Assembly (NCBI RefSeq): GCF_001677475.2
Contig: NZ_CP015229.1
DNA from: Escherichia coli
GTDB taxonomy: Bacteria; Pseudomonadota; Gammaproteobacteria; Enterobacterales; Enterobacteriaceae
Direction: 5' to 3' (one strand)
DNA length: 64,000 bases
Part shown: piece after piece, positions 60,819 through 62,010 of the stretch
Numbering within the stretch: position 1 is the first letter of the stretch
Layout: the number at the start of each line of letters is the position of its first letter
Translations under genes and position numbers: made by a program
Notes under the pieces: generated by a model
What the model was told of the DNA's origin: nothing
The model's database searches: none
The model's input: the letters and a program-made list of their open reading frames with translations, nothing else

Positions 60819-61966
60819 CATGCCACCTCCTGAGTCAGCGCAGGGAGATGGGCGCGGCACTGCATCAGTGGTTGAATGCGCTCGCCGAAGGTTTCGATTC
60901 CCGACAGAAAATCATCGAAGGTCAACAGCACGCCTTCGGCACCAGGCACGCTTGCGACTTCATCTAACATGCGCGCGACACTGGCGTAAGAACCGACTAA
61001 CGTCCCCATATTGATGTTTACCGCCGAAGTGGGATCGGCCATCTGACGGACGTTGGTGTCAGTACCGGAGCGGGTATCTTTCTGACTTTGTTCGGTTAGC
61101 CAGCTTAACGCCTCTTCATCCGCGCCCGCTTTGTAGTGTTCCCATTTGGCGCGAGCGGCATCGTCGGTTTCATCGGCAATCACCATAAACAACACATAAG
61201 AGCCAACGTCGCGCCCGGTTTGCTCTGTGGCCTGTTTCATCCGCGCAGCGGTCGGGGCGAAAGCCGTGGGTGTATTTACGCCTTTGCCAAAACAGAAGTT
61301 GAAATCGGCATACCGGGCGGAGAACGCCATGCCAGCGTCGCTTTGCCCGGCGCAGATCACTTTCATGGGGACACTCGGTTGCGGACTGACGCGACAATCA
61401 TCCATAGTGAAAAAATCGCCTTTAAAATCGCTTTTCCCCGTGCCCCACAGGTCGCGCAGCACCTGAACATATTCGGTGAGATAGTCGTAACGACGGGAGA
61501 AATAGTCATCGCCAGGCCAGATACCCATCTGCTCATACTCGGGCTTTTGCCAGCCAGTCACGAGGTTGACGCCAAAACGCCCGCCAGAGATGGAGTCGAT
61601 GGTTGCGGCCATACGGGCGACGATTGCCGGAGGTAACGTTAAGGTGGCAGCTGTCGCGTAAATCTGAATGCGCGAGGTGACGGCCGCCAGCCCCGCCATC
61701 AAGGTGAACGACTCAAGGTTGTGATCCCAGAACTCAGTTTTGCCGCCAAAGCCACGCAGTTTGATCATCGACAGGGCGAAGTCGAAATGGTAGTGCTCCG
61801 CTTTTTGCACAATGGCTTTATTCAGTTCAAAGGTCGGCATGTACTGCGGCGCGTGGGTCGAAATGAGCCAGCCGTTGTTGCCAATAGGTACGAATACGCC
61901 AATTTTCATCATCAACCTCTCTTCGTCTTGTAAAGTGAAAGTCAGACGGGGCGCTGCATCCTGCAT
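60818..61966 (-). CDS. rutA: Pyrimidine monooxygenase (FMN-dependent, luciferase-like)
   Basis: Start taken at MQDAAPRL. An alternative start at MMKIGVFV (61909/61912) has a stronger RBS. Confidence 0.85.
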
Positions 61967-61992
61967 ATCCTTTTCAGCCGCGTAATGGTTTG

Positions 61993-62010
61993 TTTGCAAA
62001 GCGGATGCCA
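61993..62010 (-). promoter_or_regulatory. Sigma-54 (-24/-12) promoter of the rut operon
   Basis: Minus-strand TGGCATCCGCTTTGCA matches GG-N10-GC with TTGCA at -12. Confidence 0.7.

Follow-up and report, generated by a model that had tools for sequence, protein, structure and literature searches.

A probable untranslated leader of rutA behind the sigma-54 promoter of Escherichia coli and its candidate conserved RNA module

The sigma-54 promoter upstream of rutA in Escherichia coli, the start of RutA at the ATG at position 61909 and the untranslated nature of the reading-frame extension in front of this codon together form a reading that is well supported and very likely correct. The downstream start is not new, given that RefSeq already annotates rutA from 61909. 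The new part is the first third of the 57 nt preceding this ATG, which, judged from sequence comparison, appears to be a conserved, Enterobacterales-specific leader module. The locus belongs to an E. coli-type chromosome and represents its rutR-rutA control region; the window is the entire stretch of 64,000 nucleotides that was analysed, and all positions refer to it.

The -24/-12 element that the first-pass annotation had placed upstream of rutA on the minus strand is indeed there: it is TGGCATCCGCTTTGCA at 61995..62010, with the GG at 62009/62008 and the GC at 61997/61996. No other exact match to TGGCAYN5TTGCW exists in the 64 kb of the window. The chance expectation is 0.26 matches per window, at least one match is found in 23 of 100 shuffles, and the motif, taken in isolation, is not significant. 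It becomes convincing because of its position, its conservation and the sigma-54 ChIP-seq signal on the identical K-12 sequence. [quoted passage not shown] A scan of 61700-62400 yielded no sigma-70-like promoter. A mechanically called open reading frame of 393 aa starting from the TTG at 61999 was rejected, this TTG being the -12 element itself.

Under the rule that places +1 at 12 nt past the C of the -12 GC, that is, 19 nt from the motif centre (PMC4591121), the transcript on the minus strand is predicted to start at 61984 (+/- 1-2 nt), 18 nt upstream of the ATG at 61966 that opens the long form of RutA and 75 nt upstream of the ATG at 61909. The first-pass annotation had likewise predicted the start from the promoter and a very short leader for the long form; its values, a start near 61980 and a leader of about 15 nt, give way to 61984 and 18 nt. 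The same promoter-to-gene distance of 18 nt is given for rutA in Table 1 of PMC4591121, where it is the shortest protein-coding leader among 42 intergenic sense sites. The leaders of hypA (20 nt), zraS (21 nt) and zraP (25 nt) in the same table are of similar length, so that 18 nt is no outlier and leader length alone is not decisive for the choice of the start. The earlier argument from leader length thus arrived at a conclusion that stands, by reasoning that is weak. A literature search returned nothing usable on a mapped rutA transcription start, 5' RACE, primer extension, start-site profiling or an N-terminal peptide.

The divergent gene for the TetR-family repressor RutR occupies 62197..62835 on the plus strand, where the RefSeq coding sequence of 639 nt maps. 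Two putative NtrC enhancer sites are present on the minus strand, namely TGCACTCTCATCGCGCA at 62118..62134 and TGCATGTTTTATGTGCA at 62097..62113, with centres at about -142 and -121 from the predicted transcription start. The former has two mismatches to TGCACYN5RGTGCA. The latter has three, was therefore not listed by the scan that allowed two mismatches, and was read straight from the sequence. Because the window-wide consensus scan is no richer in matches than chance, the assignment of these sites is based on their position and on the control of rut by NtrC as described in the literature (PMC10891134, Fig. 1 legend). Downstream of them, a likely RutR operator, TTGACCGTTTAGTCCA at 62075..62090 on the minus strand, has three mismatches to TTGACCANNTGGTCAA. 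RutR binds the rutA-rutR fragment (PMC2952853; PMC10891134), and expression of rut has been said to need "other unknown mechanisms" besides the release of RutR (PMC10891134). Boxes of the form GGACCAnnTGGTCCA that resemble the RutR operator are found upstream of rutA also in Pseudomonas and Variovorax loci. Another RutR-like box in the window, at 34568-34583, lies within an open reading frame resembling a polysaccharide export gene and is probably a chance match. With the sigma-54 promoters of glnAp2, glnK, nac, astC and ddpX, the rutA promoter shares the consensus GG-N10-GC element, putative upstream NtrC sites around -120 and -140, induction by nitrogen limitation and sigma-54 occupancy in ChIP-seq, at OS10 in the case of rutA (PMC4591121). 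Unlike these promoters, it has an additional RutR box between the enhancer and the promoter, and its leader contains a conserved GGA module that has not been described for the others.

The evidence on the start codon comes from annotation, protein families, comparative genomics and translation initiation signals. The rutA coding sequence starting from the downstream ATG spans 60818..61909 on the minus strand (363 aa, stop codon included in the coordinates). RefSeq/PGAP starts the gene at the position equivalent to 61909 in K-12 MG1655, O157:H7, KE55 and NT1N25. Position 1 of both TIGR03612, the RutA equivalog family, and PF00296 corresponds, in the 382-aa form, to residue 20, which is the ATG at 61909; the match to TIGR03612 is full-length (727 bits, with a cut-off of 498), and the match to PF00296 scores 170.6 bits. 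Members of the family are 360-374 aa long. Outside Enterobacterales, RutA of Pseudomonadaceae, Halotalea and Variovorax begins with M-x-[VI]-G-[VI]-F, as in the N-termini MDVGVF, MDIGIF, MKVGVF and MNVGIF. Crystal structures were obtained from constructs of 363 and 364 aa, and relatives in the PDB align from residues 19-21. As the first-pass annotation had noted, the in-frame ATGs at 61912 and 61909 (MMKIG and MKIG) follow GAAGAGAGG. This sequence includes the Shine-Dalgarno sequence GAGAGG at 61916..61921 on the minus strand, which forms a duplex of -8.1 kcal/mol with the anti-Shine-Dalgarno sequence with a gap of 5 nt to the ATG at 61909. The gap to the ATG at 61912 is 2 nt, and this codon, which would give 364 aa, could serve as a minor alternative start. 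The earlier suggestion that the shorter RutA is the real product is supported by RefSeq/PGAP, the profiles, the leaders of the relatives and the Shine-Dalgarno sequence.

In all 78 other Enterobacterales loci, ATGAAAATTGG is preceded by a GAGG-type Shine-Dalgarno sequence, and in 46 of the 78 there is an in-frame stop between the predicted transcription start and the ATGAAAATTGG ATG. In the loci of the Enterobacter cloacae complex, the predicted transcription start and the rutA ATG are 32 nt apart, so that an N-terminal extension is not possible there. Within E. coli itself, 15 complete genomes have a TGA in the 57-nt "extension", and rutA is annotated as intact, with 363 aa, in the one record with the TGA allele that was inspected. 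Across Escherichia, these 57 nt show six non-synonymous or stop changes and two synonymous ones, a pattern resembling that of non-coding sequence.

The alternative, that RutA in E. coli is really, or additionally, a 382-aa protein translated from the ATG at 61964..61966 (minus strand; MQDAAPRL) behind an 18-nt leader, is very improbable. Of 5,421 E. coli genomes, about 5,400 have an uninterrupted long reading frame, and nearly all have the ATG; the long form is carried by UniProt RUTA_ECOLI and 569 contigs; the 382-aa protein of PDB 5WAN is soluble and folds; and sigma-54 leaders elsewhere are as short as 20-25 nt. Nevertheless, the extension is missing, frameshifted or interrupted by a stop in most relatives, in addition to the stops in E. 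coli, the substitution pattern and the profile boundaries described above. The first-pass annotation had found no obvious ribosome-binding site for the long form. A Shine-Dalgarno-like AAGGA does exist at 61972-61968, but it adjoins the ATG at a distance of 0-1 nt, and the best anti-Shine-Dalgarno duplex reaches -5.4 kcal/mol at a gap of 0 nt, compared with -8.1 kcal/mol for the ATG at 61909. The 382-aa form is most likely a product of annotation, and the protein is very probably not made, although some initiation at 61966, yielding a minor long isoform, is conceivable. This case resembles the longest-reading-frame over-extension seen in early annotations: the annotated start was an in-frame ATG further upstream, homologues, profiles and the Shine-Dalgarno sequence all favour the downstream one, and RefSeq has already made the correction. 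The difference is that the falsely coding stretch of rutA would itself be under selection as a leader element and would thus be spared some changes and look gene-like. The correction has practical consequences. The 382-aa protein is used in UniProt RUTA_ECOLI, in EcoCyc-style K-12 coordinates and in PDB 5WAN, there is an offset of 19 in residue numbering between RutA structures, and tables of promoter distances list an 18-nt rutA leader that would in reality be about 75 nt long.

Under the preferred reading, with the start at 61909, the sigma-54 RNA polymerase would bind the element at 62010-61995 and be activated by NtrC bound at the upstream sites, and the rut mRNA would begin at about 61984. 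RutA would be translated from the ATG at 61909, with GAGAGG 5-6 nt upstream, to yield the enzyme of 363 aa that all relatives have. The 57 nt before this ATG would be open and in frame by happenstance in most E. coli and would belong to a 5' untranslated leader of about 75 nt, at 61910..61984 on the minus strand. Across 78 loci, the length of this leader ranges from 30 to 159 nt, with a median of 77 nt.

The most conserved part of the leader is a short hairpin, GC-AGGAU-GC, at 61956..61964 on the minus strand, with a GGA (motif 2) at 61961-61959. In E. coli, the hairpin shares with the long reading frame the G of its ATG, codons 2 and 3 (Q, D) and part of codon 4; the conserved block as a whole, 61964-61946, corresponds to codons 2-7 of the long form (QDAAPR). 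In an alignment of 47 sequences from about 20 genera that is otherwise 65% identical, the positions GC.GGA.GC of the hairpin are invariant, and only the loop base N varies. Another GGA, motif 1 (AAAAGGAUA, 61968..61970 on the minus strand), or a GGGA is found about 9-11 nt upstream of motif 2 in nearly all 47 sequences, and in several Pantoea, motif 1 is a second full copy of GCAGGAUGC. Both GGA motifs are enclosed by a candidate helix, P1, in which the 5' arm ACGCGGC (61977..61983) pairs with the 3' arm GCCCCGU (61946..61952), both on the minus strand, so that motif 1 is located in the P1 loop. This GC-rich helix has 7 bp with one internal mismatch, and 85% of its cells are paired over the 47 sequences. 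Some covariation is detectable, with one pair being GC in 35 sequences and AU in 9 and another changing among C-G, U.G and U-A, but the covariation of the module may reflect only one or two evolutionary events.

The GC-AGGAN-GC module is present in about 55 of 79 species and is found in each of the three frames with respect to rutA (28, 14 and 21 loci); about 16 of 62 loci lack a start codon before it. Rahnella and P. stewartii retain the module although its position shifts from about +21 to +37, and such shifts of an intact module argue for a role at the RNA level. Several lineages have lost the module; in O157:H7, the GGA is changed to GAA, and in the E. cloacae complex the module is deleted. 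The covariance model built for it, R1, matches nothing but rutA leaders, with the exception of a weak hit (19 bits) at 12779-12817, which is regarded as a chance match given that it has no GGA hairpin and falls within, or antisense to, an open reading frame. Rfam 15, searched at E <= 10 over 61700-62300, gave no match. The complete E. coli leader, folded over 61984-61895, is no more stable than shuffled sequences (z = +0.68), so that a strong global structure is not apparent and only the local helix is retained; the RNAalifold energy of the module is weak as well (-2.45 kcal/mol). A terminator-like match on the plus strand at 61947-61963 is accounted for by the region of the GGA hairpin as read from the other strand. 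If the module holds up, it would account for the untranslated stretch remaining open and gene-like and would give a well-studied operon a further, post-transcriptional level of control.

Of the two motif forms considered for CsrA/RsmA sites, CAGGA(U/A/C)G and ANGGAN, the module fits CAGGA(U/A/C)G, with a short hairpin holding the GGA in its loop. This is the form of the CsrB repeats and of the CsrA SELEX consensus (PMC7652899), and the match to the CsrB repeat makes a CsrA site the working hypothesis. That the module binds CsrA, which would add control by carbon status after the transcriptional control by NtrC and RutR, is a genuine though tentative possibility, with less than an even chance of being correct. 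The broader proposal, that a previously undescribed 5'-UTR module found across Enterobacterales recruits CsrA to the rut mRNA, with O157:H7 and the E. cloacae complex as natural loss variants, is more speculative and, on balance, unlikely. The similarity to established CsrA targets, such as the CsrB/CsrC repeats and the glgC, pgaA and flhDC leaders, includes a GGA in the loop of a hairpin of 2-3 bp, the exact heptamer CAGGAUG and a second GGA within bridging distance, so that two GGA motifs lie within the reach of one CsrA dimer; as in flhDC, the module is located near the 5' end. The spacing of about 9-11 nt between the two GGAs is at the short end of the range reported for CsrA. Unlike in the classic repression targets, the sites are clear of the Shine-Dalgarno sequence and the start codon: the GGAs are at 61970-61959 and the Shine-Dalgarno sequence is at 61921-61916, about 45 nt apart, so that only non-classic mechanisms, such as effects on stability, a structure switch or Rho, would apply. 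If CsrA acts on rut through the module, repression is the somewhat favoured direction. The supplements of the CsrA CLIP-seq study contain no rutA peak under conditions in which rut is not induced; in the same non-inducing medium, there is a peak in the coding sequence of rutR (PMC5694010). A literature search for CsrA together with rutA or the rut operon returned no paper linking the two. [quoted passage not shown]

Several other readings of the conserved block are conceivable. It appears unlikely, but deserves consideration, that the module works as RNA independently of CsrA, whether by offering a base-pairing target to a small RNA, by serving the ribosome as a standby or enhancer site, or by stabilising the 5' end against RNase E. 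This possibility draws on the same conservation data, and the lack of a rutA peak in CsrA CLIP-seq under non-inducing conditions is compatible with it. Furthermore, in Pantoea, GUGAAAC directly 3' of the helix is complementary to GUUUCAC between the Shine-Dalgarno sequence and the AUG, which suggests a switch that sequesters the ribosome-binding site. However, no candidate small RNA was identified, and the exact CAGGA(U/A/C)G in a pentaloop hairpin, together with the additional GGA, points more specifically to CsrA than to these alternatives. It is quite improbable that the block is instead a DNA operator for a factor acting just downstream of the sigma-54 start, as a roadblock or by blocking the open complex. 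In most loci, the block is nearly fixed at +20 to +26 from the predicted transcription start, TGCAGGATGCA is partly palindromic, and both helix arms are conserved in sequence beyond complementarity. Conservation nonetheless peaks at the central GGA, not in the symmetric arms, and the palindrome disappears with A, C or G as the loop base. The G.U pairs in the helix are workable only as RNA of this strand, some genera carry the module intact but at other distances (+34, +37 or +11 to +13), and the block matches neither the RutR nor the NtrC consensus.

A coding role of a different kind, in which the ATG at 61966 would start a regulatory upstream reading frame with a leader peptide M-Q-[DE]-A-x-[PQ]-R that modulates rutA, the in-frame fusion in E. 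coli being incidental, is improbable. In about 46 of 62 loci, an ATG, GTG, TTG or CTG is found 3-6 nt ahead of the CAG, the variation at GA[TACG], CC[CAG] and CG[TC] resembles that of third codon positions, and the frame-2 loci stop at a TGA overlapping the rutA ATG; the higher translation efficiency of rutA-G under nitrogen limitation, detected by ribosome profiling (PMC9624429), would also be compatible with such a peptide. As in pyrBI and tnaC, there would be a short reading frame in the 5' leader of a metabolic operon, overlapping the start of the main gene in some species. Unlike in these systems, no conserved start codon with a functional Shine-Dalgarno spacing is found: about 16 of the 62 loci keep the block without a start codon, with TAG at this position in Erwinia and CCG in Serratia and Rahnella, and the gaps between the Shine-Dalgarno sequence and the start are only 0-3 nt. 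There is no terminator or pause signature either. It is nucleotides that are conserved, not codons, the invariant GC.GGA.GC positions following no codon pattern; CG[TC] covaries with a base upstream of the reading frame (pair 5-44), which coding does not explain; and past residue 7, the peptide is not conserved and its stop position is arbitrary.

Returning to CsrA as the working hypothesis for the module, the scavenging of pyrimidine nitrogen would, if this reading is true, be gated post-transcriptionally by carbon status, on top of the control by NtrC (nitrogen) and RutR (uracil). A leader module of this kind, if it holds up, would also fit the increased translation efficiency of rutA-G.

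At the end of the window lie putA, rutR (plus strand) and the rutABC... genes (minus strand); the window shares 97-99% identity with E. coli chromosomes, and across the rutA promoter region the K-12 sequence is identical to it. The sequence features recognized at rutA in the first-pass annotation are all present on the minus strand. In the 5' to 3' order of that strand, the region contains two NtrC-like dyads (62134-62118 and 62113-62097), a RutR-type box (62090-62075), an A/T-rich stretch, the sigma-54 -24/-12 motif TGGCATCCGCTTTGCA (62010-61995), the ATG at 61966 that opens the 382-aa form of RutA (MQDAAPRL...), the SD-region sequence GAAGAGAGG (61924-61916) and, 3' of the latter, a TTG followed by the ATG codons at 61912 and 61909 (MMKIGVFV...), the second of which opens the 363-aa form. 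The best match to the RutR consensus in the window is a different site, TTGACCATTTTGTCCA (34568-34583, plus strand, 2 mismatches); located inside a 386-aa polysaccharide-export-like ORF, it is probably a chance occurrence rather than a functional RutR site.

The sigma-54 promoter of rutA is real. The only exact match to TGGCAYN5TTGCW in the 64 kb is the rutA -24/-12 motif, which nevertheless requires outside support because chance matches are expected in about one quarter of shuffled windows. [quoted passage not shown] In a comparison set of 80 rutA loci (one genome per species), a perfect TGGCAY-N5-TTGCW is found upstream of rutA in all 79 usable loci, and a scan of 61700-62400 detected no sigma-70-like promoter. 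Distant rut operons in Stutzerimonas, Pseudomonas veronii, Halotalea and Variovorax (loci L085-L088) possess a sigma-54-like element as well (e.g., TGGCCTGCATCCTGCT and TGGCACGGAGCATGCA), located 42-59 nt 5' of the RutA start where detected, and retain a RutR box of the GGACCAnnTGGTCCA type.

Under the rule that transcription starts 19 nt downstream of the centre of the -24/-12 motif (PMC4591121), the predicted rutA TSS is 61984, that is, 18 nt from the ATG at 61966 and 75 nt from the ATG at 61909; the initial estimates of about 61980 and a leader of about 15 nt were slightly off. A literature search found no experimentally mapped rutA TSS. The distance of 18 nt to the long-form start is the value in Table 1 of PMC4591121, where it is the shortest protein-coding leader among 42 intergenic sense sites. 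Other sigma-54 leaders in that table, those of hypA (20 nt), zraS (21 nt), and zraP and pspG (25 nt each), come close (PMC4591121), so that leader length alone is a weak argument on the start codon.

All evidence other than leader length agrees and points to 61909 as the RutA start, in line with the earlier proposal that the shorter protein may be the real product, which is supported by annotation, protein profiles, the conserved ATG with its SD, stop codons in the leaders, the mere 30-44 nt from predicted TSS to ATG in the E. cloacae complex, Buttiauxella and Yersinia, and the substitution pattern within Escherichia. The RefSeq/PGAP rutA gene is 1,092 nt long (363 aa) and starts at the equivalent of 61909 in K-12 MG1655, O157:H7, KE55 and NT1N25. 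Both TIGR03612 (the RutA equivalog model) and Pfam PF00296 have their position 1 at residue 20 of the 382-aa protein, and alignments with relatives of solved structure begin at residues 19-21. All 78 distinct other loci have a GAGG-type SD followed by the start ATGAA(A/G)(A/G)T(N)GG, and in 46 of the 78 the stretch from the predicted TSS to this ATG contains an in-frame stop. The outgroup proteins from Stutzerimonas, Pseudomonas, Halotalea and Variovorax begin with MDVGVF, MDIGIF, MKVGVF and MNVGIF, and RutA homologues are 360-374 aa long. The best anti-SD duplex (-8.1 kcal/mol) leaves a gap of 5 nt to 61909 and 2 nt to 61912, compared with -5.4 kcal/mol and a gap of 0 nt 5' of 61966; SD spacing and orthology favour 61909 over 61912. 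Foldability does not discriminate between the forms because crystal structures exist for the 382-aa (5WAN) and the 363/364-aa proteins (6SGG, 6SGL). In databases, the 363-aa form of E. coli RutA (RefSeq, UniRef RUTA_ECOD1) is found in at least 1,000 contigs, the 382-aa form (RUTA_ECOLI) in 569 and a 364-aa form in 71. The short start is not new, being already the RefSeq annotation, and the 18-nt distance is already in the sigma-54 ChIP-seq table.

Within Escherichia, changes in the 57-nt "extension" between the two ATGs are non-synonymous or create a stop in six cases and are synonymous in two. The codon at 61927-61929 (minus strand) is CAA (Q) in the window and CGA (R) in K-12, and among 5,426 complete genomes of E. 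coli, 15 carry a CGA to TGA stop allele; in the one inspected record with this allele, rutA is annotated as intact, 363 aa. The listed hosts of the TGA-allele genomes are pig/swine, cat and human, and these 15 genomes may be the records with 90-95% identity to the window.

The leader alignment reveals a block, GCAGGA(N)GCA-N3-GC(N)GCGC, common to about 55 of the 79 species, whose first base falls between +20 and +26 relative to the predicted TSS. In E. coli, it comprises the G of the ATG at 61966 and long-form codons 2-7 (QDAAPR). Within GC(A)GGA(N)GC, the G, C, G, G, A, G and C are invariant in 47 aligned sequences from about 20 genera, in an alignment with a mean column identity of 65% overall. 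RutA does not include this block: relative to rutA, it lies in frame 0, 1 and 2 in 28, 14 and 21 loci, the open frame across it has arbitrary end points, and in about 16 loci no start codon precedes it, with TAG at this position in Erwinia psidii and CCG in Serratia and Rahnella. Inside the loop, a second GGA precedes the first by about 9-11 nt; in several Pantoea it is another complete GCAGGAUGC copy. A covariance model of this GGA module (the GC-AGGAN-GC hairpin and the second GGA) matches rutA leaders only, apart from a weak hit at 12779-12817 (minus strand; 19 bits, E ~0.008) that lacks the GGA hairpin, falls within an ORF or on its opposite strand and was judged to be due to chance. Rfam gave no match at the rutA leader.

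The module is enclosed by a candidate helix, P1, with the E. coli arms ACGCGGC (61983-61977) and GCCCCGU (61952-61946) forming seven pairs with one internal mismatch. Pairing holds in 86.8% of the alignment cells (47 sequences), compared with 6-57% when the arms are slid by 1-3 columns; one pair is GC in 35 sequences, AU in 9 and GU in 1, another runs through the series C-G, U.G and U-A, and no shuffle scored as high in covariation as the observed alignment. However, RNAalifold recovers P1 weakly (-2.45 kcal/mol), the stability of the whole E. coli leader is not unusual, and the covariation could stem from a very small number of evolutionary events; P1 is thus plausible, not proven.

The GGA module appears to be specific to Enterobacterales. 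It is absent from the four outgroup loci (Pseudomonadaceae, Halotalea, Variovorax) despite their sigma-54-like promoters and RutR-like boxes, and since these operons have both elements, the sigma-54 and RutR architecture is older than the leader module. The E. cloacae complex, Buttiauxella and Yersinia have lost the module; there, the predicted TSS is 32, 30-35 and 44 nt from the ATG, respectively (30-44 nt across module-less lineages). It is missing entirely from L018, L019 and L023 (E. hormaechei, E. quasihormaechei and E. cloacae) and also from L036, L039, L042, L044, L066, L068 and L070. These lineages do without the module, which is therefore dispensable for rutA expression.

This well-conserved leader module is the part that merits bench work. 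Its resemblance to known sites tentatively suggests a CsrA binding site, a possible reading although one held at less than even confidence. CsrA is described as recognizing short hairpins (2-4 bp) that present a GGA in their loop and have another GGA close by (PMC7652899); the hairpin GC-AGGAU-GC includes CAGGAUG, and its loop variants U, A and C reproduce the CsrB repeat CAGGA(U/A/C)G. Against this assignment, about 45 nt separate the GGA motifs from the rutA SD downstream, so that classic SD occlusion would not apply. The literature search found no link between CsrA and rut, and CsrA CLIP-seq, performed without rut induction, has no rutA peak; it has a peak (peak_110) inside the rutR coding sequence (K-12 1074528-1074704; about 62480-62660 in the window, plus strand), so the Csr system may touch the rut regulon via the repressor RutR (PMC5694010 supplement).

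An RNA-level role other than CsrA binding is rather unlikely, somewhat more so than the CsrA assignment. In Pantoea and Erwinia (e.g., L058-L060, ~1470-1500), the 3' helix arm is followed by the heptamer GUGAAAC, an exact reverse complement of the GUUUCAC that lies between SD and AUG, with UGAAC and GUUCA as the Serratia counterpart. The Pantoea complementarity suggests that the module could be coupled to a candidate RBS-sequestering helix. Under nitrogen limitation, mRNA and translation efficiency of rutA-G rise in concert in ribosome profiling (PMC9624429), and both this rise and the Pantoea complementarity are compatible with post-transcriptional control. Much less probable is an upstream ORF, and a DNA operator is slightly less probable still. 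Within GGAUGCA, a second AUG begins an ORF of five codons, AUG CAG CGC CCC GUC UGA (MQRPV*; 61942-61959, minus strand), 8 nt downstream of AAGGA, a proper SD spacing; it occurs as MQRHV* in Enterobacter and Leclercia and is not retained in clade-like E. coli (L005), Kosakonia and Pantoea.

In the O157:H7 lineage (L003 equivalent), the otherwise invariant hairpin GGA (61959-61961, minus strand) is GAA (CAGAATGCAG), which would be a natural loss variant if the module is functional. Of the 5,426 complete genomes of E. coli, 299 contain the exact 34-mer with GAA and 4,416 the canonical 34-mer.
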